Positions 2,008-52,342 of a stretch of 64,000 bases of DNA are shown one piece after another. Numbering within the stretch: the first letter of the stretch is position 1; each line of letters opens with the position of its first letter. The notes beneath the pieces were generated by a model, which worked only from the letters and a program-made list of their open reading frames with translations, had not been told where the DNA came from and ran no database searches. The stretch is from an uncultured Acidobacteriota bacterium (lineage in GTDB: Bacteria; Acidobacteriota; Thermoanaerobaculia; Gp7-AA8). Location: assembly GCA_963793695.1 (NCBI GenBank), contig CAWCBB010000008.1, positions 6,833 through 70,832 on the forward strand, given 5' to 3'. The position numbers were made by a program, and so were the translations under genes.

Positions 2008-5000
2008 CTACTGGCCCGGGATGAACGTCGGATCCTGCGTCATGTTGTCGACCGTCGATCCGTACGCGACGATCTTCCCGTCCCCGCCGACCACGCGGAG
2101 CGCGACGCGCGCGTTGTACGTGGTTCCGGCGTTGAGCGTCTTGAGGATCTGGTTGAACTGGCGGAACTCGTTCGGCTTCAGAGTGAACTCGACGCGCGGG
2201 GTCACCCGCGACTCGGCCGGGAACGCGCTCAGTTCGACGCGCACTTCCTTCCCCGTGACTTCCACGATGCCGAGGTTCGAGCGGATGTTGCTCGACTGCT
2301 CGAGCTGGAGGACCTGCATCGCGCGATCGCCGAGGCCGATCGCGTCCTCCTCGGTGACGGCCGCCATGAACTGTCCGTAGCTGCCCGCTCTCGCGCTGAT
2401 CGTACGTCCGCCCGGTGACGACGAGCTCCGAGTCGGTCGCCGTCGTGATCTGGATCGCGCCTCCCGTGTTGCTCTGCCCCGAACAGCGTCGGGACGATGT
2501 CGCCGAGGGTGCGGATGGTTCCCGGGCCGATCTGGACCGTCGCCGTCTTCGCCGCGGTCGAGGCGCCGACCGGGAAGAACGCGACCGTCGCGCTCACCGA
2601 AGCGAGCCCCGCGTTGAAGACCTGGACGTCGCGTGCGCCACCGCGCCTGACCGGTGTCGAAGTGGGCGATGCCGGGCATCACGTATTTGCGCGCGCCGAT
2701 CTTCGCGAGATCGACCGCGTGCACCTGGAGCGGGTCTCCCGTGACGTTGTCGACGACCGAGGCGTACGCGGCGATCCTGTCCGTCGCCCGAGACGACCTC
2801 GACTTCGGCGCGCGGCGTCGTGACGTTCGTGAGTCCGTTCGTCGGCGAGGACCTGGTTGAGCTGGCGGTGCTCGCCGGGCTTGAGGCTCAGCGGCACGGT
2901 CAGAAGCTCGCCCCGCTCGCCGTCGAAGAAGCGGATCTCGACCGAGACCGGCTGCCCCGATGCTTCAGCCACGCCGACGTTCGTTCGGTAGCCGCTCGAC
3001 TGCGCGAGCTGCTGGAGCGACAGAATGCTCTTCTTCGCTCTCCGGCCGGAGTCGATCCGCCGACGAATGACGCGAACGGGATCGCGGGGATGTACTCGCC
3101 GAGAGTTCCCTGCGGGGTTTTGTTGTACGTCCGCGACGAGGCGAGCGAGACGAGAGAGCGCGTGACCGGAATTGCCTGCGCTCCCTTGCCCGCGCCGCGC
3201 CGTTCCGAGCGGCCGGATCTCGAGCACGCCCGTCGCGCCCTCTCCCGGCAGCGAGCCGAGCCCGTACCACTGCTTGACCACGTCGTCGAGCGCCGCGTTC
3301 TGTCCCGGCGCGAGCTCGAGCTCGCACGTCTTTCCGCCCAGCGTCGCGTCCGTTCCCGTGCTCGTCCAGAGGAGCCGGTACTTCTGCTTCTCCGAACCGA
3401 GATTGAGAACGCGGACGTCCGTTTGCCACTCGGAGTTGACGCCCGTCGCGTGCGCGACCGCCGGGATGATGAGCGATTCGGCCACAGGGGAGTCCTTCCC
3501 CTTGTTCGTGACCGGCGTGACGAGCGTGACCGAGACCGGCGTCGATCCGGTGACGGGGTCGTGTCGAGAGCCTGCTTCGCCGCCGGCGATCGCGATGAAC
3601 GTCATCGTCACCGTCCCGGTGTTCGTTCCGACCGGGAGTCCGACGGGGTTCGTGATGACGGTCACGGTCACTCCGTCCTGGCCGATGGTGCCGCCGGGCG
3701 GCTCGACGCGCATCCAGTCGCGGTCCGTCGTCGCGATGAAGGTGTAGCTCGTCTGCAGGTCCGGAGTGGGGGAGGGGATGAACAGCTGCTGCCGGATCTC
3801 CTCCTCGTTGCCGAACTGCACGACCGTCTCGGCCTCGGTGGAGGCGGGCGGCGGAAGCGGGATGACGACGATCCGGCCGACGCCGGAGAACTCGCATCCC
3901 TGCTGCGCGAGCTTGACGCGGTAGTAGTACGCGCGCGGCTCGCGTCACGCCGTGCTCGAACATCGCGAAGACGAACTCGCCCGTCGGGTCGACTTCGCCT
4001 TCCTTGTCGGCGAGGATGGTCGTGAAGCCGGCCGTGTCGGATTCCTCGAAGAGGTAGCTGCAGCCCGACCGAGACGATCGTCGCGCGAACCTCGATACGG
4101 CTTGTCCGTGGTCACCTCGCCCTGGAGCGAGAGGACCGGCGGGAAGCAGGAGACGTTCACCTGAACGGTGCGCGACTGCAGCGAGCCGCATCCTTCGGGC
4201 AGCACCGCCTCGACGTACCAGGCGAGCGCCGCGCCCGCCGGGAATGTCGGCCGCCAGCGCGGGATCGGCGGCGCTTCCGTCGACCGTCCCCGCGTTCTGG
4301 AACGCGCTTCCGTTGATCGACATGAAGAGGTCGTAACGGGCGGTACCTCACCGGCGCCCAGCGGAAGAGCACCGGCGTCTGCGTCGATCGCGTCGCTCTC
4401 GAGCGGCGCGATCGGCTCCGGAGCCCCGCTCGGGCAATCGCGAACGACGGTGATGAGACGATCCGTCGAGCTGAGGCTCGGACAGCCGTCGGCGAAGTCG
4501 GCGATCACCCGCCAGCTGAACGTGCCGAGAGACATGGAATCGTCGTCGCCATCGTGGCCGGCAGCGGCGCCGCCGGCTGCGGGATCACCGCGATTTCCTC
4601 GAGGCCGCCTTCGGGGCTGAAGATCGCGAGGTGGTACTGCGTCGCGTTCGTCGCAACGGTCCACTCGAACCGGACGTCGGGCGCGAGCTCGGCGCCCGGC
4701 TGCGGCGCGACGAGGAGCGGCGCGGAATTCGGACAGGGTTCGGCGACCGTGAAGCGGACGCACGCCGACTCGGGCGGCGTCGTGCAGCCGCTCTTCTCGG
4801 CGACGACCTTCCAGTCGTATTCGCCGGGCGCGAGGCCGCTGTACGCCATCTGCGTTCCCGTGGTGGTTCCGAGGAGCGTCGCGCAGCCGGATCCCGCGGG
4901 ACCGAGGTAGATCCTGTAGAGGTCCGCGCCGGTTCCGCCGGTCCAGGAGAGCGTCCCGTTGCCTTCGACCTGGGTACCCGAACCGGGAGCGATCGCCGAG

Positions 5001-8000
5001 ACGGCAGCGGGGCAGGGGGCCGTCTGAACGGTCACGGTGACCGTGCCGACCGCCTGCCCACCGGCCCGTCGGAAACCGTGTACGTGAACGAATCCGTCCC
5101 CGCCGAGCCGGCAGGGGTGTACGTGCAGGAGCCGGCGGGCGTGCAGGAGACCGTTCCGATCGAGCCGTTCGTCGATGAGAGAACCGAGAGCGGTCCGCCG
5201 TCGATGTCGCTGTCGTTCGACAGCACGTTGATCAAGACCGGCGCGTTCGCGGTGGTCGTCGCCGCGTCGGCGCCCGCGGTGGGCGGATCGTTGACCGGCG
5301 TCACCGTGATGGTGACCGTGCCGACCGACGAGACGAATCCGTCGCTGACCGTGTAGGTGAACGAGTCGGAACCGTTGAAGTTCGCGTTCGGCGTGTAGGT
5401 GCAGGTCGCCGTTCCGCAGGCGGCGGTCCCGTTCGTCGCCGGTGTGAATCCGGTGATCGTGAGCGGATTGCCGTTCGGATCCGTGTCGTTCAGGAGGACG
5501 TTGATGCCGAGCGACGTGTCCTCCGGATAGGTTCCGGTGTCGGGGTTCGCGACGGGTGCCGCATTCCCGGTGGTCACGAGATCGACGTACGTCGCCCCGG
5601 TCATCACGTTGAGGCTGTTTCCCCCTCCGAGGTCGGTGCCGTTCGTGGTCGCGAACGCGTTGTTCGGCGAGGGAGCGAGCGATCCGAACGTGAGGATCCG
5701 ATACGAGTTCCCGTCCACCGGGACGTACGGTGAGAGGAGCGCCACGTTCAGGGTTCCGCCGAGCGAGGCGGTGCCGGTGACGTTGAGCTGATCGAATTGC
5801 GTGCCCGCGGTGAGACCGGCCAGCTCGACGTCGAGCGAGCCGGAGGCGCCTTGCGTGTAGTTGCCGTCGATCGTGAGCGCGCCGGGCGAGGTGCCTGGCT
5901 TGACCGTGCCGCCGCTGTTGAGGACGTTGCCCGTGAACGTGCCGCCGCCCATCAGCGCGCCGCCCTGGAAATCGACCGCGCCGTTCGAGGCCGCGTTCGC
6001 GCCCGCGGCGATCGAAAAGGCTCCCGCCGTCTGGACGAACGGAGCGGTGGAAAAGTCGAGCGTTCCGGCCTGAACGTCGATCGTTCCGGCGTTCGTGACG
6101 TTCGCCGAGAGGAACTGCGAGGTTGCCGTGCCGTTGCGGACGAACGTCGCGCCGGCCTGGTTCTCGAACCGCGACGCGGCGCCGGTGCAGCAGTAGTAGT
6201 AGAACGCTCCGGTGTCCGAGCGGGTGAGGGTCGCGCCCGCGAGGTTCTCGATCGCGCCACCCTGGTTTCCGTAGACCCACCCGGTGCCGCTCCAGGTGCC
6301 GGAGCCGCCGTTGCGGAGCGTCGCGCCGAGAAGATACTTGGCCCCCGGTCCGGTGAGGTTGACGGCCCCCGGAGACGCCGCGATCTGGACGATGGTCGTT
6401 CCACCGAGGGTACCCGTTGACCAGTTCATCGTGCCGGCGACGCCGATCTGGCTCGAGCCGCCGAGCGTTCCGCCGGTGAGATCGAGGTTCTGCATCGACG
6501 CGGAGGGCGCGGTGAGCGAGAGTGTGCCGCCGGGGATCGAGGTGAGGCCGCTGTTGGCGAATGGGCCAGAGGCGTTCACCGCGCCGGTCGTGACCTCGAT
6601 CGTGCCGTTCGACGAGATCGCGCCCGAGAGCGTGTGCGTGCCGCCCGCGAAGCGCAGGATTCCCGGGGAGGTCACGCCGAACGCACCGGAGCCGGATCCG
6701 CCGCCGCTCAGCGACAGGATTCCCGAGGTGACGGCCACCGTCCCCGTGTTGTTCAGCTGCGGATAGATGGTCGTCGCGGCGGTCCCGCCCGTCTTCTGGA
6801 ACGTGCCGCTGTTGTCGATGCGTGGAGTGCCGACGCCGTTGGAGTAGATGTAGGCGACGTCGGAAGTGATGTCGAAGGTCGCCGCGTTCTGGAGGACGCC
6901 TCCGTTGTAGATGCTCAGATAGTAGGGGCCGCCGCCGTACGTCGCGTTCGAGTTGAGGACGAGGGTACGCCCGTCGAGGTACGCGTAGCCGGTGTCGTTC
7001 GGGAACGCGGCGGAGCCGCCGGCGAGGACGGTCGTGGTCCCCGTCCCGCCGAGCGTCCCGCCGCTGAACGTGAAGGCGCCGCTCACGGTGATCGCCCCGG
7101 ATCCCTGGAGCGTGCCGCCGGCGATCGTGAGGGCGGGGGAGGATGCCGCGGCGTTGAACGTGTGCGCTCCCGCGTCGACGAGCGTCAGGCCGCTCCCGGT
7201 GAGGGCGTAGCTCCCGGCGAGCGTCGTCGTCCCGTTGCTGAAGCGCATCGTTCCGGTTCCGCTCACGGCCGATGGCGCGGTCAGCGAATGCGCGCCGCCG
7301 TTGAAGCGGAGGACGGCGGGCGCGGTGGCCGTGAACATGCCGGGGCTCGTCCCGCCGCCGTTGAAGCTCAGGATTCCCGAGGTGACGGCGGTCGAGCCGC
7401 TGTTGTTGAAGCCGCAGTAGACGATGGTCTCGCCCGTCCCGGCCGTCTTCTGGAACGTACCGCTGTTGTCGATCCGGGGGGAGCCGACGCCGTTGCTGTA
7501 GAGCGGCGCGTCGTTCTGGATGTCGAACGTCCCGCTCGTCGCGAGGACGCCGCCGTTGTAGATGCTGAGGTAATACGGGCCGCCGCCGTACGTCGAGGCG
7601 GCGTTGATCGTGAGCGTCCGGCCGTCGAGGTAGGCGTATCCCGTGTTGTTCGGGAACGCGGCGGAGCCGCTCGCGAGGACGGTCGTGGTCCCCGTCCCGC
7701 CGAGCGTCCCGCCGCTGAACGTGAAGGCGCCGCTCACGGTGATCGCCCCGGATCCCTGGAGCGTGCCGCCGGCGATCGTGAGGGCGGGGGAGGATGCCGC
7801 GGCGTTGAACGTGTGCGCTCCCGCGTCGACGAGCGTCAGGCCGCTCCCGGTGAGGGCGTAGCTCCCGGCGAGCGTCGTCGTCCCGTTGCTGAAGCGCATC
7901 GTTCCGGTTCCGCTCACGGCCGATGGCGCGGTCAGCGAATGCGCGCCGCCGTTGAAGCGGAGGACGGCGGGCGCGGTGGCCGTGAACATGCCGGGGTTCG

Positions 8001-10976: not shown

Positions 10977-12120
10977 CTACCGGTACTTATTCGCGCCGGT
11001 ATTGAACAGGACGACGCGCGCATCGCGGGCGATCGCCGCGCGCTCGAGAAGGAGGCGGAGTCCCGCGAGCGCGGCGCCCCCCTCGGGACCGGCGTCGATC
11101 CCTTCCATCGCGCGGATCTCCGCCGCAGCCGGCTCGATCGACTCCTCCGGCACGGCGACCGCGCCTCCGCGCGACTCGCGGAGCGCCGCGAGCATCAGCC
11201 GGTCGCCCACCGCGCGCGGCACGCGGAGGCCCCAGGCCGCCGTCTTCGGGTTCTCCCACTCGGGCGCATTCTCGAGACCCTGCTCGAAGGCGCGGACGAC
11301 GGGCGCGCACCCGCGCGACTGGATGCTGAACATCCGCGGCCGCTCCGGACCGATCCATCCGAGCCGCTCCATCTCGTCGAACGCCTTCCACATCCCGATG
11401 AGGCCCGTCCCTCCGCCGGTCGGGTAGAGGATCGCGTCGGGCACTCCACCGAGCTGCTCGACGAGCTCGTACGCCCATGATCTTCTTTCCCTCGACGCGG
11501 TACGGCTCCTTGAGCGTCGAGAGGTCGAAGCCTCCCCGCTCGCGCAGCACTTCCTGGACGCGCTTTCCCGCGTCCGTGATGACGCCGCGCACCAGCTCGA
11601 CCTCGGCGCCGTACGAGCGGCACTCGTCGATCATGGACGGCGGCGTGTCGTCCGGCATCGCGATGAACACCGGGACGCCGGCGCGCGCGCCGTACGCCGC
11701 GAGGGCCGATCCGGCGTTGCCCGCGGTCGGCGCGGCCAGGAGCTGCGCGCCGAGGCGGCGCGCCATCGTGACGGCCGCGGCCATGCCGCGCGCCTTGAAC
11801 GAGCGCGTCGGGTTGAGCGATTCGTCCTTGATCAGGAGCCCGTTCATCCCGAGAGAGCGTCCGAGGCGGACCGCCGGCAGCAGGGGAGTGTCGCCTTCCC
11901 CGAGGGTGACGATGTCCCTCTGCGGAACGGGCGGGAGGACCTCGCTCCACCGCCACATCCCTCGCGGGCGCGAGCCGATCCGGGCGCGCAGCGGCGGATC
12001 GAGCCCCAGCTCGTACCGGACCAGGATCGGCGCGCCGCACGCGGGGCAGAGGTTGCGCAGGGCGTCGATCGGGGAGGACCCGTCGCAGACGGAGCAGCGG
12101 AGAAGGGCGGGGAAATTCAT
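10977..12120 (-). CDS. thrC: threonine synthase with an N-terminal Zn-ribbon; one frameshift near nt 11455
   Basis: MNFPALLRCSVCDGSSPIDALRNLCPACGAPILVRYEL...KDESLNPTRSFKARGMAAAVTMA (the PLP-lysine motif), then ...PDAILYPTGGGTGLIGMWKAFDEMERLGW in a second frame. Confidence 0.85.
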
Positions 12121-12184
12121 CGTTGATCGCAGATCCTCGATCGTTGCTTGGTTCTTGGTAGTGGTTGCTGATTGGTCGAAGCGT

Positions 12185-12366
12185 GATGTCATCCCGAGCG
12201 TAGCGAGGGATCCGGGTGGGGGCTGCGAAGAACGCAGCGGCGGTGCAGGGCGCGAAAGCCGGCATTCGCTCTGGCCGAAGGCGAATACCGACCCTCGCGC
12301 CCTCCACGGAGCCCGCGTCACGCGTCTCCCCCCGCCCAGATCCCTCGCTACGCTCGGGATGACATC
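12185..12366. mobile_element. MITE-like element, 182 bp, with 28-bp perfect terminal inverted repeats GATGTCATCCCGAGCGTAGCGAGGGATC
   Basis: The TIRs are at 12185-12212 and 12339-12366. A second, inverted copy lies at 27854-28073 with the same termini and a diverged interior. Confidence 0.65.
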
Positions 12367-12405
12367 CTGCCAGGGCGGCGCGGGAACCGCATCTGGCCGA
12401 CTCGA

Positions 12406-12482
12406 TCGCCGCGCAGATTAACACTCCGCGAGGTCGGAGCGCGGTTTTTCAATCTGCAATCTGCAATCCGCAATCTGCAATA
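12406..12482. repeat. heptamer array family B (AATCTGC x4.5), with a single upstream GCAGATT unit and an internal small hairpin
   Basis: caatctgcaatctgcaatccgcaatctgcaat. The same heptamer arrays occur at 20028-20172 and 49544-49650. Confidence 0.7.
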
Positions 12483-12496
12483 GAAAGAGCCGGACA

Positions 12497-12525
12497 AAGG
12501 CCGGCTTTTTCGAGAGGCGCGTGCG
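12497..12525. terminator. probable bidirectional intrinsic terminator hairpin (AGCCGGACAAAGGCCGGCT followed by TTTTT)
   Basis: A GC-rich stem-loop with a T-run on the plus strand and CTTTCT on the minus strand, directly downstream of the lipoprotein stop at 12534. Confidence 0.5.
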
Positions 12526-12533
12526 GCGCGGCC

Positions 12534-13301
12534 CTACTGCTGCGATTTCTGCTGGATGTCCTCGAGCGCCTTCTGCGCCTCGCCCGGCTTATCCTCGAAC
12601 TTCGACATCTCGGTCGCGAGGGCGTTGAGAGTGCTCTCGTACTTGGAGAGCAGCTCGCGGTTGGCCTTGACCGAAGGGTCGACCTGCTCCTGCTGCGCCG
12701 CCATCTCTTTGCGGTTCTTGTCGTACTCGGCGAGCATCCCCGCGAGGGCCTTCTTCGCCTCGGCGTCGGTGGCCGCGTCGTGCTGCTTTTTCAGCTCGTC
12801 GTACGCCTGGTCCATCATCGCCTTCGAGCTCTGCTGGAGCGACTCGGTGAACGCCGCGCCGCTCGCCTCGAGCACGCGCTCCTTCACCCACTGGTACTCG
12901 GCGGTGTTGAAGCCCAGCTCGTGCGCGGCGCGAATGTCCGCGGTCAGGAAGTCGGCGGCCGATCCGAGGGCCTTGAACCCCGCCATGACTCCCGCGATCG
13001 ACTTCTCACCCTTCCCCTCGGCCGATTTCGCCTGCTTCTCCATCTCCTTGCGCGCCACCAGAGCGATCGCCTTTTCCTTCTCCCGGACCTTCAGGTACAT
13101 CTGAATCTGAGCGTCGGTCAGCCGGGCGTCGGCCGGGGGATCGTACGAGTCTTCCGACGTTTTCTCGAGAAGCTCCTTCGTTCCGACGTCTTCGAGGTCG
13201 TCGGAAATCGCGGCCTCATCGACCGCCTTCTTGAGTTTGCATCCAGTGGGGACGAGAAGAAGGAGAAGCAGCCCGAGGGCGAGAGCGATGGAACGACGCA
13301 T
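12534..13301 (-). CDS. hypothetical lipoprotein (lipobox LLVPTGC), charged and coiled-coil-rich
   Basis: MRRSIALALGLLLLLLVPTGCKLKK... The ORF is clean and 255 aa long. Confidence 0.75.
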   Translation of the reverse strand: MRRSIALALGLLLLLLVPTGCKLKKAVDEAAISDDLEDVGTKELLEKTSEDSYDPPADARLTDAQIQMYLKVREKEKAIALVARKEMEKQAKSAEGKGEKSIAGVMAGFKALGSAADFLTADIRAAHELGFNTAEYQWVKERVLEASGAAFTESLQQSSKAMMDQAYDELKKQHDAATDAEAKKALAGMLAEYDKNRKEMAAQQEQVDPSVKANRELLSKYESTLNALATEMSKFEDKPGEAQKALEDIQQKSQQ

Positions 13302-14549: not shown

Positions 14550-14680
14550 CAAATGCAAAATGCAAAATGCAGAATGCAAAATGAAAAATGCAGAAAGGGC
14601 CCGCGCGACGGTCAGGCCGCGCCCGGCGTGCTCTCGCCCGTTTTTGGACTTTTCATTTTGCATTCTGCATTTTGCATTCG
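14550..14680. repeat. heptamer array family A: inverted pair (AAATGCA)n ... (TGCATTT)n with a 40-nt GC-rich spacer
   Basis: The left arm caaatgcaaaatgcaaaatgcagaatgcaaaatgaaaaatgcagaaaggg and the right arm ccgtttttggacttttcattttgcattctgcattttgcattcg would form a stem of about 30 bp. Confidence 0.8.
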
Positions 14681-14697
14681 TGCGCGGAGCACACGTT

Positions 14698-20011: not shown

Positions 20012-20027
20012 GGATGGGATAGTGTAA

Positions 20028-20172
20028 TTGCAGATTGCAGATTGCAGATTGCAGATTGCAGATTGTTTTTCCTCCAAAGCGGCGATGGGACTTTGAGGAT
20101 CGGGCACCGATCAGTGATGATGGATGGGGTCGAGGGGTTTCAATCTGCAATCTGCAATCTGAGATCTGCAAT
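20028..20172. repeat. heptamer array family B: (GCAGATT)x5 ... 72-nt spacer ... (AATCTGC)x4
   Basis: ttgcagattgcagattgcagattgcagattgcagattg at 20028-20066 and caatctgcaatctgcaatctgagatctgcaat at 20141-20172. It lies between the GHL10 start (20011) and tRNA-Leu (20180). Confidence 0.8.
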
Positions 20173-20179
20173 CGAGACG

Positions 20180-20269
20180 GCCCCGGTGGCGGAATCTGGT
20201 AGACGCTGCGGACTTAAAATCCGCTGACCCGAAAGGGTCGTGCCGGTTCGAGTCCGGCCCGGGGCACCA
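20180..20269 (+). tRNA. tRNA-Leu (anticodon UAA), class II with a long variable arm, CCA encoded
   Basis: gccccgg tg gcggaatctggtagacgc tgcgga CTTAAAA tccgc tgacccgaaagggtcgtg gccgg ttcgagt ccggc ccggggc a cca. The acceptor stem pairs over 7 bp and the T-loop reads TTCGAGT. Confidence 0.85.
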
Positions 20270-22162: not shown

Positions 22163-22274
<112 letters not shown>

Positions 22275-23035: not shown

Positions 23036-23248
23036 CGTTCTCCGTTCTCCGTTCTCCGTTGTCCGTTCTCCGATCTCCGTTCGCCGTTCTCCGCGGCACC
23101 TCCCCGCGCCCGCGCCCGAGCCCGGATTCTCTTTCAGTCCGGACGAAACCGCGTCCGAGGTCGCAGTCCACACGATCTGCCGCGGAGAACGGAGAACGGA
23201 CAACGGAGAACGGAGAACGAAGAACGGGGAACGGAGAAACGAAGAACG
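23036..23248. repeat. heptamer array family C: (GTTCTCC)x8 ... 89-nt GC-hexamer spacer ... (GGAGAAC)x9
   Basis: cgttctccgttctccgttctccgttgtccgttctccgatctccgttcgccgttctccg at 23036-23093 and cggagaacggagaacggacaacggagaacggagaacgaagaacggggaacggagaaacgaagaacg at 23183-23248. The spacer contains ccccgcgcccgcgcccgagcccgg. Confidence 0.85.
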
Positions 23249-27044: not shown

Positions 27045-27059
27045 GGCGAGTAGTCAGGG

Positions 27060-27437
27060 AGCAGTAGTCAGGGGGAAGGGTACAACGGACGAAATCGCCG
27101 TTGGAAACGGATGAAGCCGCGGCAGGATTTCGAGGGCTGGTTCCGGGCCTGCAGGTTGAAGCGATCCGACGTGACGGCTCCCTCACGGGGAGGCCGGAGC
27201 TCGCCTGGTGTCGGAATGGCGCGAAACTGCTATGCGCGTCAGCGCGCGATCGACTTCACGAGCGAACTCATTGCTGCGGTAGCGCTCCGCTCAAGATACC
27301 AGTCTGTCGCGAGCAGCAACTCGGCTCTCGCTGAGGGATGAAAGCTAACGCTTCTCTCTTGTTTCGATACCAAGCCCGTTCGTGTTCGATTTCGAAGGGA
27401 CAGCGCGCCTCTTCGAAGAATCGAAGACGCGGGCTCA
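27060..27437 (-). pseudogene. ParE/RelE-family toxin-like gene, badly frameshifted (multiple indels)
   Basis: The minus strand from ATGA at 27437 reads MSPRLRFFEEARCPFEIEHERAWYRNKREALAF.. Fragments such as AELLLATDWYLER and EILPRLHP resemble the ParE core and its ..EILRVLHGARD C-terminus. Coordinates are approximate. Confidence 0.35.
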
Positions 27438-27673
27438 TCGATCAGATCGGTAGAGCTGGGCGCGAAGCTCTTGCCAGGAGACCGTCTTCACGCGTCCTGC
27501 GTCGAAACTCAGCCATTCGGTTCTCGACCTCGGACTGCCCATGCCTGCTCGATCTCGTCGGTTGGTCCGCTGCCCTCGTCGAGACTTTCGAGAAGAAGCG
27601 CCTCAAGTTCCGCCCGGTCTTCGGGTGCCAGCTCCGATGCGCGTTCGTACAGGTCTTGGATCGCCCGGTTCAT
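27435..27673 (-). pseudogene. addiction-module antitoxin-like small protein (TIGR02574-type) with 2 frameshifts
   Basis: MNRAIQDLYERASELAPEDRAELEALLLESLDEGSGPTDEIEQAWA in one frame, .EVENRMAEF in a second, and DAGRVKTVSWQELRAQLYRSDR* in a third. The stop overlaps the downstream toxin-like ATG. Confidence 0.45.
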
Positions 27674-27853
27674 GCTCGCATTCTACTCGCGCGCTCGGAT
27701 GATCGGCCAGGCCGCCCAACGGTTTGCCGCTGAGCCGCGGCCACCGCGCGCGAGAAAGTATAGATCTCGGAAGGCAGTAACGCAGCGGTTGGCGCGCGGT
27801 GCAGCGGCCGAGTTCGACGCAATGGCCTTAAGGTAAGCGATGGTTTCGACGAC

Positions 27854-28073
27854 GATGTCATCCCGAGCCCTCACGTCGCGCTTCGCGCTCCTCAGGGCAG
27901 GCTCCGCGAGGGATCTGGGCGGGTGGGTTACGCGTGACGCGGCACCGAAGCACGGCGGCAGGATCGAGATTCGCCTGCGATCACGAAGCGAATGCCGATC
28001 CTGCCTGCCCTGCACCGGCGCCGCGTTCTTTCGCAGCCCCCGCCCAGATCCCTCGCGTACGCTCGGGATGACA
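27854..28073. mobile_element. second, inverted copy of the MITE-like element (termini GATGTCATCCCGAGC... / ...GATCCCTCGCGTACGCTCGGGATGACA)
   Basis: It has the same 28-bp termini as 12185-12366. The interior is about 70% similar (acgcgtgacgcgg...gcgaatgccg...ccctgcaccg.cgc.gcgttctt). Confidence 0.6.
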
Positions 28074-29164
28074 GCTTCGACGGGCAACTCGCGTTAAGTT
28101 AAGGCCATTGGAGTTAGACGGCGCCCACATGCCTCGTGGCCTCTTCGCGTCGGTTGAGATAAACAGCTACCGCAGGTAGAACCGACCAGGGCGAGAACCA
28201 CATAGAACATCGCTGAGATACCGGAATGACGACAAAGAGCTGCGTGACCGTAACCGAGATACAGGCCGCAGTAGAAGCAGTCGTACAGTGCAAGCGGCGC
28301 GCTGAGAGTTGCAGCGCCAGACCGAGCTCGCTCGCGAAACCGGGGCTGATTGGAATCGGAAGAATGCTGCCGGTGACCGCGCCGAAACGCTGCGTCCGGA
28401 ATCGCTTCTAACGGCGTGGGCACGGCATTTTGGCGGGCCGCGGCCCCTGCAAGCGATCGAGTTAGCGGTGACCTGCACTTCCCCTTCTCGGCCTCAGGAA
28501 GGCTCCCACGGAGTCGCGCACCGGTACCAATGGGGCGACGAAGAAGGCGGGAGCGCGTCGCCCGCAGCGCAGGATCGCCTGGAGAGCGCAGGGACTGCAG
28601 GCTGAGCCGCGATCCTCGCGGAGCCTCCCCGAGGGGCGGCACGATAGGCCGGCGACGGCGAAAGCATCTACGCGCGCTAGAACGCCGGTCGCAGCCACCA
28701 TGAAGCGCTCCAAACCGCGGAATACGGGAACGGAAGCGTGTAAACGGTCAGAGCAGAAGGCCACCGCAGCTCCGCCATCCTGGACCTGAGCGTTCACCTG
28801 CGCGATGGTGCCGGCAGCATAGGTGAGAAGCAAGGAGCCAGCGTCGCAGCTCAGCGTTCTGCCCGCCGGTCATGCTGCGCGAATTAGGCCGTCGTCTGGT
28901 CAGTGCGATTGGTCGGCCTGACTATTCATCCATGGATTACCGGGACCGAGGATATCTGGGACGAGTTGTGCCACGTGTATCCTCGGAGGCCCTGATTCGA
29001 AGATTCTACCGCTACCAGTTCAGCTGGTGAGGGTTCCGGTGGGGCGACGAGCTCGTCGTTCGGGTCTGTTCGGACCGATTCGGTCGCGTATCCCGTCGCC
29101 GGCGGAGCGGGCGCGGTGGGGCCGGGCAGTCGATCCGCCGGCCGCACTTCCCGGCCGCGGGTTC

Positions 29165-29292
29165 GTTCCTCACTTGCGTGTAGATCAGGTCGTCGTCAGA
29201 TCGGCGTGTCGAGAAGCTTCTGGACCGTCAGGATGTCGTACCGGTCCTCGTGTGCTGCGCGATGACGTCCTTCGGTTCGCGGAAAACGAGAG
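29165..29292 (-). pseudogene. tyrosine recombinase (phage-integrase family) C-terminal fragment, 5'-truncated and frameshifted
   Basis: The minus strand reads ..GRHRAAHEDRYDILTVQKLLDTPI* and, one frame over, DDDLIYTQV. This matches the ..RHTfA..L...G.DI.TVQ.LLGHsd..TT.IYTHV box II/catalytic Tyr region. Nothing upstream, because the mutS2 stop is at 29315. Confidence 0.4.
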
Positions 29293-29294
29293 GC

Positions 29295-29317
29295 CGGGCG
29301 CGCGCAGCGCGCCCCTA
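29295..29317. repeat. REP-like palindrome GGGCGCGCGCAGCGCGCCCCTAC, overlapping the mutS2 stop codon
   Basis: An exact 23-mer, also at 46844-46866 and, reverse-complemented, at 1908-1930. Confidence 0.7.
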
Positions 29318-35099: not shown

Positions 35100-35215
35100 G
35101 AAATGCAAAATGCAGAATGCAAAATGTAAAGTCCCCAAAGGCGGTCGCCGGGCGGTCTCCTTTTTGGATTTTTCATTTTGTATTTTGCCCGGGTCCGAGA
35201 TCCGAGGTCCGAGGT
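35100..35215. repeat. heptamer array family A inverted pair (AAATGCAAAATGCAGAATGCAAAATG ... CATTTTGTATTTTGC), followed by (TCCGAGR)x3
   Basis: The arms are at 35100-35135 and 35157-35188, and tccgagatccgaggtccgaggt is at 35191-35215. It is intercistronic, 35 bp upstream of the squalene-synthase-like start and just after the oxidoreductase stop. Confidence 0.8.
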
Positions 35216-40457: not shown

Positions 40458-40582
40458 AAAAAATGCAAAATGCAGAATGCAAAATGAAAAATACAAAAAG
40501 GGCGTGATGCTCACGTCTCGCAGGAAAGCCCCGATTCCCTCCTCTTTTTGTGTTTGACATTTTGCATTTTGCATTCTGCATT
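40458..40582. repeat. heptamer array family A inverted pair
   Basis: aaaaaaatgcaaaatgcagaatgcaaaatgaaaaatacaaaaaggg ... cctctttttgtgtttgacattttgcattttgcattctgcatt, between oppF and the tolC-like gene. Confidence 0.85.
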
Positions 40583-44590: not shown

Positions 44591-44717
44591 CCGTTCTCCG
44601 TTCTCCGTTCTCCGGAAACCAAGGGCCTCTGGCGTGCGTACAGGAGAATGGACGAAAAGCCGGGCCCGGGCCCGGGCGCGGGTGGGGGCGGAGAACGAAG
44701 AACGGAGAACGAAGGAC
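44591..44717. repeat. heptamer array family C inverted pair (GTTCTCC)x3 ... (GGGCCC)n spacer ... (GAGAACG)x4
   Basis: ccgttctccgttctccgttctccgg, a spacer with gggcccgggcccgggcgcgggtggggg, then gcggagaacgaagaacggagaacgaaggac. It lies between the macA-like and macB-ATPase genes. Confidence 0.8.
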
Positions 44718-44734
44718 GCCTCTCCAGGAATGAC

Positions 44735-48933: not shown

Positions 48934-49034
48934 CAAATGCAAAATGCAAAATGCAAAATGAAAAATACAAAAAGGGGCTGATGCCATAATCCCCCTTTTG
49001 GACTTTTCATTTTGCATTTTGCATTTTGCATTTG
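48934..49034. repeat. heptamer array family A inverted pair with a near-perfect 40-bp stem and a 13-nt loop
   Basis: caaatgcaaaatgcaaaatgcaaaatgaaaaatacaaaaagggg ctgatgccataat ccccttttggacttttcattttgcattttgcattttgcatttg, between pilT and recX. Confidence 0.9.
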
Positions 49035-49041
49035 TCTTCTG

Positions 49042-49545
49042 ATGGCGATGTCCGACCAATCTCCCGAGGACCGCTGCTACCACGCCGCCCTCCGCCTGCT
49101 CGGCTACCGCTTCCGGAGCGAGGCCGAGCTGCGCAAGCGGCTCCGCGAGAAGGAGCACGAGGCCGAGGCGATCGACACGGCGCTCGCGCGGCTCCGCGGC
49201 GAGGGTTGGATCGACGACGCCCGGTTCGCGAGCGTGCTCGCCGAATCGAAGAGCCGGAAGGGAATCGGCCCGAAACGCGTCGGGCTCGAGCTGCGGCGCC
49301 TCGGCGTCGACGACGAGATCGCGGGCGCAGCCATCCACGGCGCCGATCCGGAGACGGCCGAGAGCGACCTTGCCTCCCTCGTCCGGAAGCGCATCCGGAT
49401 CCTCGGCCGCAGCCACGGTCCCGGATGGGTGCCCGGCGAAGGACGACCGAAAGAAATTGCTGGTGTATCTGTTACGGCAGGGATACGAGTACGCCGCCGC
49501 CGGTCAGGCGCTCGACGCAGGCCTCGAAGAAGGGACGCGATTGTT
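49042..49545 (+). CDS. recX: regulatory protein RecX; one frameshift near nt 49420; the 3' end is uncertain because the reading frame runs into the heptamer array
   Basis: MAMSDQSPEDRCYHAALRLLGYRFRSEAELRKRLREKEHEAEAIDTALARLRGEGWIDDARFASVLAES..., then DDRKKLLVYLLRQGYEYAAAGQALDAGLEEG in a second frame. Confidence 0.7.
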
Positions 49546-49650
49546 GCAGATCGCAGATTGCAGATTGCAGTTGGAATCGCCGCATGATTCCGAACGACAT
49601 GGCGAACGTCCGAGCGATGGTTTCAATCTGCAATCTGCGACAATCTGCAA
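49544..49650. repeat. heptamer array family B inverted pair, (GCAGATY)x4 ... 50 nt ... (AATCTGC)x3, ending 10 nt before the alaS ATG
   Basis: ttgcagatcgcagattgcagattgcag ... tcaatctgcaatctgcgacaatctgcaag. Confidence 0.8.
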
Positions 49651-49657
49651 GCGCTGA

Positions 49658-52342
<2,685 letters not shown>

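Follow-up and report, generated by a model that had tools for sequence, protein, structure and literature searches.

Dimers of a TGTC-tagged hairpin, probably of REP type, upstream of thrC and in a second intergenic region of an Acidobacteriota genome

Repetitive extragenic palindromes (REPs) have been sorted into GTAG- and CGTC-tagged superfamilies by Di Nocera, De Gregorio and Rocco (2013; PMC3733652), whose running text describes a CGTC unit as a hairpin with an unpaired tag, CGTC (or TGTC or CCTC), at one end, a stem of 8-9 bp starting with complementary A-T residues, a loop of 4-5 nt and a short unpaired 3-nt tail, CCA in most. According to the same text, head-to-head dimers of these units predominate while tail-to-tail dimers are rare and tandem ones negligible, some copies are intragenic, some dimers of H. 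neapolitanus are nested in other palindromes, no transposase gene is associated with the superfamily, and its members, among them Neisseria dRS3 and Rickettsia RPE-4 and RPE-6, occur in Proteobacteria, Chlorobi, Bacteroidetes, Spirochaetes and Thermotogae. REP doublets forming hairpins (REPINs) carry the GTAG tag and are tied to a single-copy gene for a REP-associated tyrosine transposase (RAYT) that has these same REPs on both sides (Bertels and Rainey, 2011, PMC3116915; PMC3337134). Here we analyze two palindromic elements, copies 1 and 2, in 64,000 nucleotides of DNA from an uncultured Acidobacteriota bacterium (contig CAWCBB010000008.1 of assembly GCA_963793695.1; this whole stretch is hereafter the window), elements that an initial annotation had called a MITE-like repeat (MITE stands for miniature inverted-repeat transposable element). 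We conclude that each is probably a head-to-head dimer of a short hairpin repeat of the CGTC/TGTC-tagged REP type, REPIN-like in form and set in an architecture that resembles the bacterial interspersed mosaic elements (BIMEs) and neisserial intergenic mosaic elements (NIMEs).

The hairpin arm, its dimers and their abundance

Copy 1 had been described as having perfect 28-nt inverted ends with an imperfect extension, and both features are present: two occurrences of the 28-mer GATGTCATCCCGAGCGTAGCGAGGGATC, and no others, are present in the window (12185-12212, +; 12339-12366, -), where none is expected by chance (100 shuffles), and with 95% complementarity the inverted repeat can be followed over 38 nt (12185-12222 against 12329-12366). 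Copy 1 is predicted to fold as a single long hairpin that encloses three inner ones, with energies of -141 kcal/mol on the + strand (z = -13 against shuffles) and -158 kcal/mol on the - strand (z = -15). Alignment of copy 2 with copy 1 gives 80% identity when one of them is reversed and 77% when both are read forward, and the interior blocks GGGGGCTGCGAA(A)GAACGC and CCGCGTCACGCGT match in reverse orientation only, in agreement with the earlier description of a reversed copy with a diverged, alignable interior; its termini, which had been called the same, are so only in part, since the outer 13-mer TGTCATCCCGAGC stands at both ends (27856-27868, +; 28061-28073, -) but the arms carry insertions of 37 nt and 1 nt. 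A tandem or segmental duplication, which would have spoken against a dispersed repeat, does not apply to two copies that lie 15.5 kb apart in unrelated contexts and differ at about a fifth of their positions. The parts of the two elements are as follows.

12185-12366, 182 nt: copy 1, read as a head-to-head dimer (tags outward) of TGTC-tagged, probably REP-type hairpins with a structured spacer of 126 nt
12187-12213, + strand: left arm of copy 1, consisting of TGTC, ATCCC, tandem G.A, GC, loop GTA, GC, G.A, GGGAT and tail C
12338-12364, - strand: right arm of copy 1, with the sequence of the left arm read on the other strand
12222-12238: interior hairpin GCTGCG-AAGAA-CGCAGC, common to copy 2 (alignment and folds)
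12243-12307: central interior hairpin of copy 1, with the conserved apex CATTCGC...GCGAAT (folds and alignment)
12308-12329: interior hairpin with the core CGCGTCACGCG, common to copy 2 and the relative L245 (alignment and folds)
27854-28073: copy 2, the same kind of dimer, reversed relative to copy 1 and about 80% identical to it
27856-27915, + strand: left arm of copy 2, its hairpin loop enlarged by a 37-nt insertion (27869-27905)
28047-28073, - strand: right arm of copy 2, whose loop GTAC has one inserted nucleotide compared with copy 1
27820-27839, partner 28090-28110: outer inverted repeat around copy 2, CAATGGCCTTAAGGTAAGCG / CGCGTTAAGTTAAGGCCATTG (read from the sequence)

Beyond these four arms, no further arm of this type was found in the 64 kb. 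A long-loop arm like the left arm of copy 2 is also present in locus L208, and the copy 2 dimer as a whole is nested within another palindrome, formed by the outer pair listed last. The lower stem of the central hairpin differs among copy 1, copy 2 and the element of L245 yet is paired in each, with five pairs changed on both sides, a weak signal from an alignment of just three independent sequences. A search of the window with Rfam 15 at the gathering threshold gave a tRNA at 20180-20266 as its sole match; at relaxed thresholds the element matched plant microRNA-precursor models alone, far under their cut-offs, which is noise of the kind that long hairpins produce.

Each end of these elements is itself a self-complementary unit of about 25-27 nt, reading (T/C)GTC, ATYCY, GA, GC, loop, GC, GA, RGRAT and C, in which the tag is unpaired, the 5-bp stem ATYCY/RGRAT is followed by two G.A mismatches and two G-C pairs, and a loop and a short tail complete the unit. 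Counted over nine positions (ATCCCGAGC/GCGAGGGAT), the stem starts with AT, has the conserved G.A/A.G mismatches at positions 6-7 and covaries at its outer five pairs. We sampled this covariation by searching IMG/VR for GTCATYCYGAGCGNAGCGARGRATC with the four Y/R positions left free, which matched at least 120 stretches. Of 137 independent non-redundant arms, 136 can pair at both variable positions of the stem, as compared with 25% expected if the positions were independent, and this constitutes direct covariation for pairing inside a single arm. Its variants are ATTCT/AGAAT (72 arms), ATCCT/AGGAT (39), ATTCC/GGAAT (16) and ATCCC/GGGAT (9). Of the 137 arms, 121 have T and 12 have C in front of GTC, and all four window arms begin TGTC-AT. 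In Thermoanaerobaculia, loops between GAGC and GCGA are mostly 3-5 nt long (CGCA 27, GTCGA 23, GTA 19, GCA 15, GAGA 14; also GTGA and others), of GNA, GNRA or other type, with occasional insertions of 7-45 nt; with a stem of 8, the GTA loop of copy 1 would be 5 nt long. The tail after RGRAT is C followed mostly by TC, TG, TT or CC, and is CCG or CTG in the window arms. Most arms in IMG/VR are solitary or stand opposite a degenerate partner. A literature search for the arm string found it printed in no relevant text-searchable paper, and nothing specific in RepRanger (PMC12306157).

We searched the GTDB species genomes with the subfamily signature GCGAGGGATCYGGGYGGG, which all four window arms contain. 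It matches at least 114 stretches, mostly in metagenome-assembled genomes (MAGs) of Thermoanaerobaculia/Acidobacteriota, in 596 Gb from which we estimate about 70 or more chance matches; scattered matches in Actinomycetota and elsewhere lack the rest of the arm, and those in Thermoanaerobaculia, Terriglobia and other Acidobacteriota carry the full arm. Among the matches listed, single genomes hold many loci (SMAG_U6245, BP_58 and the complete chromosome OY969474.1). Many matches are no more than 75 nt away from the end of a contig, a clustering that marks a multi-copy repeat, and contigs of the window's close relatives end 24-82 nt past the lipoprotein gene that lies upstream of thrC, just short of the repeats. 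The arm repeats are multi-copy in Thermoanaerobaculia genomes and break assemblies. The earlier statements that the repeat is small, non-coding, dispersed and palindromic, and that related GTCATCCCGAGCG...GGATC sequences are common, are upheld, the latter by these genomic and IMG/VR matches. The ATTCT form of the arm occurs on plasmids of Planktothrix, Calothrix, Oscillatoria, Hymenobacter, Phocaeicola and Granulicella, so that the unit spans phyla, from Cyanobacteria and Bacteroidota to Granulicella.

The 114 genome loci comprise 56 head-to-head, 2 tail-to-tail and 3 tandem arrangements and 47 solo arms; head-to-head dimers, the arrangement of both window elements, thus make up 56 of 61 dimers. 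Typical dimers measure 83-135 nt, which makes the window copies long ones, and the spacer in the window lineage is 126-130 nt with three hairpins. A metagenome scan for this long-spacer subfamily (CGCGTCAC N9-18 CCCAGATCCCTCGC) gave two matches only, both ordinary short dimers, and the long-spacer form is so far limited to the window and the relatives L241 and L245.

Two further arrangements were observed in MAGs. Locus L216 (Thermoanaerobaculia MAG SMAG_U4328) has five 113-nt dimers about 450 nt apart at 4416-6346, in frame within a low-complexity, repetitive open reading frame (ORF) of 1805 aa and each translated as ...VIPSGSEESGGR...DPSLSLGMTE...; this ORF is either a real repeat protein decorated with REPs or spurious. 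Short contigs of MAG SMAG_U6245 (L151, L219, L231 and others) carry half-arms GTCATCCYGAGC with about 45 nt of conserved sequence in tandem at a period of 55-59 nt; these clusters lead into a full dimer and resemble BIMEs, and many contigs of that MAG end there.

Flanking sequence and the search for a mobilizing enzyme

MITEs have ends that match an insertion sequence (IS) and make target-site duplications of fixed length. Target-site duplications and a transposase with matching ends had been proposed as checks on the MITE-like label, and we compared the flanks of 112 non-redundant dimers with shuffled flank pairs. Direct repeats of at least 5 bp occur at none of the 112 dimers and those of at least 3 bp at 11, against 15.3 +/- 3.6 in shuffled pairs; the flanks of copy 1 have no target-site duplication. 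Complementarity, by comparison, extends at least three pairs beyond the arms in 17 of the 112 (5.6 +/- 2.2 in shuffles), and several dimers, including copy 2, are nested in other palindromes, with that of L235 lying between inverted heptamer arrays. Dimers are found preferentially in the middle of palindromes that were there before them, in the present case flanked by inverted heptamer arrays.

In about 1.5 Mb of sampled loci, the 0.6-4-kb stretches that lie between arms contain ordinary genes and no transposase, and no IS ends matching the arms were found in the window or in the 250 loci examined. A phmmer search of the 9,458 ORFs of all loci, with two transposase sequences as queries, returned three genuine-looking Y1/RAYT-like genes, all flanked by inverted REPs of other types, unrelated to the TGTC arms, at the following positions.

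L209, 785-844 and 1427-1486
L033, 1048-1084 and 1815-1851
L048, 1202-1294 and 1700-1804

The gene of L209 (851-1378) lies between a 60-nt inverted pair containing GTAGCCGGCGG..., and these genes with REPs of their own indicate a second REP system in the same genomes or contigs. One of the REPs flanking a Y1/RAYT-like gene is GTAGCCGGCGGTCAGCGCGAAGCGCTGCACCGCCGG, whose apex is again GCGAAGC. The initial annotation's statement that the autonomous partner is unknown therefore stands, none having been found in the window or the sampled loci, and of its MITE-like label the part that survives is the small, palindromic, dispersed repeat; the reading as terminal inverted repeats with duplications and a transposase does not, as the units fold on themselves, occur solo and lack duplications. 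By analogy with GTAG-REPs and RAYT, the units may spread as non-autonomous DNA, possibly through a single-stranded hairpin stage on which a trans-acting enzyme would work. The window elements would at most add a strong hairpin to any transcript that crosses them.

The thrC-upstream site and the competing explanations

Copy 1 lies 64 nt upstream of the thrC ATG, as had been noted, in an intergenic region with the following features.

10987-12120, - strand: thrC (threonine synthase), ATG at 12120; Pfam PALP on orthologues
12121-12521: intergenic block of 401 nt comprising terminator, heptamer array, spacer, copy 1 and thrC leader, present or absent among close relatives
12450-12481: tandem heptamer array (CAATCTG)x4.6, adjoining the terminator
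12488-12506, - strand: terminator-like hairpin of the lipoprotein-like gene
12534-13301, - strand: lipoprotein-like gene of 255 aa, upstream of thrC

Among relatives, the spacer between the lipoprotein gene and thrC takes several forms.

Window: 413 nt, with copy 1
L241 (GCA_040961035.1; about 82% nucleotide identity in coding DNA): 430 nt, same element in the same place
L245 (79% protein identity): 641 nt, with degenerate arms and a related long dimer that is reversed relative to copy 1
L243 (70% protein identity): 328 nt, a different, ATCCT-type dimer
L242 and L253 (78-79% protein identity): 140 nt and 185 nt, with terminator and inverted heptamer arrays (ATTGCAG)n...(CTGCAAT)n only
L236-L240 (97.5% nucleotide identity): 19 nt, with 7 nt in place of 12121-12521, so that thrC starts 19 nt after the upstream stop

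These differences identify the site as a hot spot at which dimers are gained, flipped, exchanged and lost. The relatives have an inverted partner array before thrC, and REP dimers lie between the two heptamer arrays. No leader peptide or attenuator was seen by eye upstream of thrC. The thrC frame of the window is lost after about residue 215, with one alignment gap relative to the intact gene of L236, and represents either a pseudogene or an assembly error. In the complete Acidobacteriota chromosome OY969474.1 (L202, 1458-1572), a 115-nt dimer lies just downstream of thrC, on the other side from that of copy 1; the shared adjacency looks like a coincidence of a gene-dense region and not orthology.

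Several observations weigh against our reading of the elements as dispersed REP-type dimers. Only two dimers are present in 64 kb of the source genome, a count that covers the window alone. A lone arm folds to the expected hairpin shape, but with nearest-neighbor energies its stability does not exceed that of shuffled sequences, and for this reason the hairpin claim rests on covariation, together with the published stability of GCGNAGC and tandem sheared G.A, unusually stable motifs that a nearest-neighbor model does not capture. Our comparison of relatives at the thrC-upstream site revealed neither a transposition event nor a clean empty/filled pair with exact junctions: relative to the empty sites of L242 and L253 the indel exceeds the dimer and its junctions fall within heptamer repeats, so that no precise insertion point can be defined for copy 1. 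No mobilizing enzyme for the TGTC arms was identified in the arm-bounded intervals or by the Y1 search of the sampled loci. The stem of the arm has two conserved G.A mismatches (GAG...CGA), whereas the CGTC families, as far as the text and peptides printed by Di Nocera et al. (PMC3733652) define them, are fully paired, and its tail is CYG or TC in place of CCA, a soft feature given that CCA is stated for most. With two non-Watson-Crick pairs and a non-CCA tail, the arm is no exact fit to any of the four CGTC families described. Finally, in a comparison with L241 over 9.3 kb, the two 100-nt windows that contain copy 1 are the most conserved of 99 (97 and 96% identity; median 79), and the block 12160-12510 is 94.6% identical as against about 82% in flanking genes and 64-80% in the adjoining codons; purely selfish, neutral DNA would not predict this excess.

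That conservation is the starting point of an alternative we regard as unlikely, in which the thrC-upstream copy or the 400-nt block is a selected cis-regulatory RNA or small RNA and its REP ancestry is incidental. The thrC-sense strand also folds 14-17 kcal/mol better for copy 1 and its L241 counterpart, via G-U pairs, and dimers occupy the site in L241, L243 and L245. High identity to L241, however, suggests either selection on the block or recent lateral exchange, and because the rest of the block is equally conserved, lateral exchange fits as well as selection. Of the seven substitutions between the element and L241, read against the - strand fold, two improve pairing of the long stem and the other five, neutral or disruptive, are not compensatory. 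The block is dispensable in the 97.5%-identical L236, the site is empty in L242 and L253 and the related element is flipped in L245, which argues against a conserved regulator of thrC, as do the position of copy 2 in an unrelated island and the lack of any Rfam match beyond long-hairpin noise. The strand asymmetry is likewise not general: copy 1, copy 2 and L241 have the more stable fold on the transcribed strand, whereas the family divides into 4 sense, 7 antisense and 5 ties. RNA-level selection as a property of the family was rejected on this count. Should selection be what has kept the thrC-upstream copy so well conserved, this would exemplify the recruitment of a REP dimer to a function.

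It is quite improbable that the elements are non-mobile palindromes, generated and maintained on the spot by template-switching in replication or by gene conversion at terminator-like sites and alike through convergence on a stable hairpin motif. Arm-to-arm correction would yield perfect arms around interiors that are about 75-80% alike, as seen here, and both the nesting of elements in other palindromes and the same hairpin core in distant phyla would suit such an origin. In contrast, copy 1, copy 2 and the element of L245 share non-palindromic interior blocks at unrelated loci, and subfamily-specific extensions (GGGATCYGGGYGGG) are common to dozens of loci in one genome. A classical MITE, an IS deletion derivative with 28-bp terminal inverted repeats to which a target-site-duplicating DDE transposase binds, is largely refuted and hardly credible: the size of 180-220 bp, the perfect inverted ends, the non-coding content, the presence of more than one copy and the 7-nt TTCGACG found, with a 2-nt offset, to either side of copy 2 would fit it, but the flank and interval results above, the covarying, self-complementary arms that occur as solo units and a 37-nt insertion inside one "end" of copy 2, which a protein-bound repeat would not readily tolerate, all stand against it.

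To the reading as REP-type dimers we would add, tentatively and as rather unlikely, that one or the other of two further propositions is true. The first is that the thrC-upstream dimer or 400-nt block has been co-opted as a structured RNA or regulatory cassette, which would explain why it holds the most conserved 200 nt in 9.3 kb between genomes that are about 80% identical. The second is that the unit is the substrate of a widespread single-stranded-DNA enzyme, in which case the tandem-G.A/GNA unit common to Acidobacteriota, Cyanobacteria, Bacteroidota and many phage-like contigs would be inserted by that enzyme at palindrome centers. The filled, flipped, swapped, empty and deleted states of one orthologous site, a natural series always set between inverted heptamer arrays, offer a handle on how CGTC-REPs are mobilized, a question raised in 2013.

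Copy 2 occupies a 2.27-kb stretch without credible genes (27045-29314) between mutS2 and dnaG. The corresponding spacer of the relative L248 is just 142 nt, composed of inverted GC-rich hexamer arrays, which places copy 2 within a lineage-specific island. The initial annotation had located it in an island next to toxin-antitoxin remnants; the island is confirmed, and of the remnants there is a weak, sub-threshold Unstab_antitox match in a 54-aa ORF (27509-27673, - strand).

Inverted pairs of tandem heptamer arrays (AAATGCA, ATTGCAG, CGTTCTC and others) also bracket short GC-rich hairpins in many intergenic regions of the window, in addition to the array at 12450-12481. The same architecture is present in the relatives L243, L245, L253 and L248, and inverted arrays adjoin arms in the IMG/VR loci L007, L024, L037, L053 and L101. 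We know of no description of these arrays, whose positions in the window are as follows.

14551-14592 with 14640-14683: heptamer arrays
20027-20065 with 20141-20173: heptamer arrays
22198-22274: hexamer repeats
23036-23093 with 23183-23248: heptamer arrays
35101-35130: heptamer array
40460-40498 with 40553-40582: heptamer arrays
44591-44614 with 44692-44718: heptamer arrays
48935-48972 with 48996-49033: heptamer arrays
49544-49570 with 49624-49661: heptamer arrays

Comparison with described repeat systems

The label MITE should be replaced by "head-to-head dimer of TGTC-tagged REP-type hairpins". Like bacterial MITEs such as Correia/NEMIS and Nezha, the elements fall within 70-300 bp, have inverted ends, are non-coding and dispersed, and can sit in 5' leaders and fold in RNA; unlike MITEs, they show neither IS-matching ends nor target-site duplications. 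For annotation this means treating them as REP-type hairpin dimers and not as transposon remnants, and expecting spurious ORFs (with peptides like VIPSEARDL and DPSLRSGMT) and assembly breaks where they occur.

REPINs are the closest mechanistic model. The window elements share with them two inverted REP hairpins and a spacer that form a long hairpin, a non-coding, multi-copy nature, the lack of target-site duplications and a presumed single-stranded DNA biology. They differ in the tag, here TGTC, and the defining tie of REPINs to a flanked RAYT is absent, as other REPs surround the Y1/RAYT-like genes of L209, L033 and L048. E. coli BIMEs and Neisseria NIMEs resemble the loci in their mosaic, strain-variable intergenic architecture, with REP units, heptamer arrays and terminator hairpins, and differ in the repeat sequences themselves. 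To our knowledge, inverted tandem-heptamer arrays bracketing a site are not part of BIMEs or NIMEs.

The likeness is greatest to the CGTC superfamily as set out in the text of Di Nocera et al. (2013; PMC3733652): a (C/T)GTC tag, an AT-starting stem of 8-9 positions, loop and tail both short, a predominance of head-to-head dimers and, in the loci sampled, no transposase gene with the repeat on either side. The in-frame copies of L216 parallel those that it reports for CGTC REPs and for the Rickettsia palindromic elements (RPEs), and the nesting of some dimers in other palindromes parallels that of the CGTC REPs of H. neapolitanus. From the tag, the AT start of the stem, dimer orientation and lack of a transposase in the sampled loci, we infer that the window elements are probably CGTC/TGTC-type REP dimers of a variant, and in a phylum, that this text does not list. 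The loops, at 3-5 nt and including GNA and GNRA, and the unusually long, structured spacers of the window depart from that account. As far as the paper's text and peptides go, the arm, GAGCGNAGCGA, is probably distinct from the described families: CGTC-1 (VIPAKAGI) back-translates to GTCATTCCCGCGAAAGCGGGAATC and CGTC-2 to ...CTGAA-CTTGT-TTCAG..., both fully paired, and the intragenic CGTC peptides VIPAKAGI, VMPGLDPGIH and RHSELVSGS likewise back-translate to paired stems, none of which is the GAGCG-N-AGCGA core (VIPSEARDL). The kind of repeat is thus one already known, and its variant and host appear to be new: Acidobacteriota lies outside the five phyla listed for the superfamily, and these dimers would extend the CGTC/TGTC REPs to that phylum with a new arm variant.

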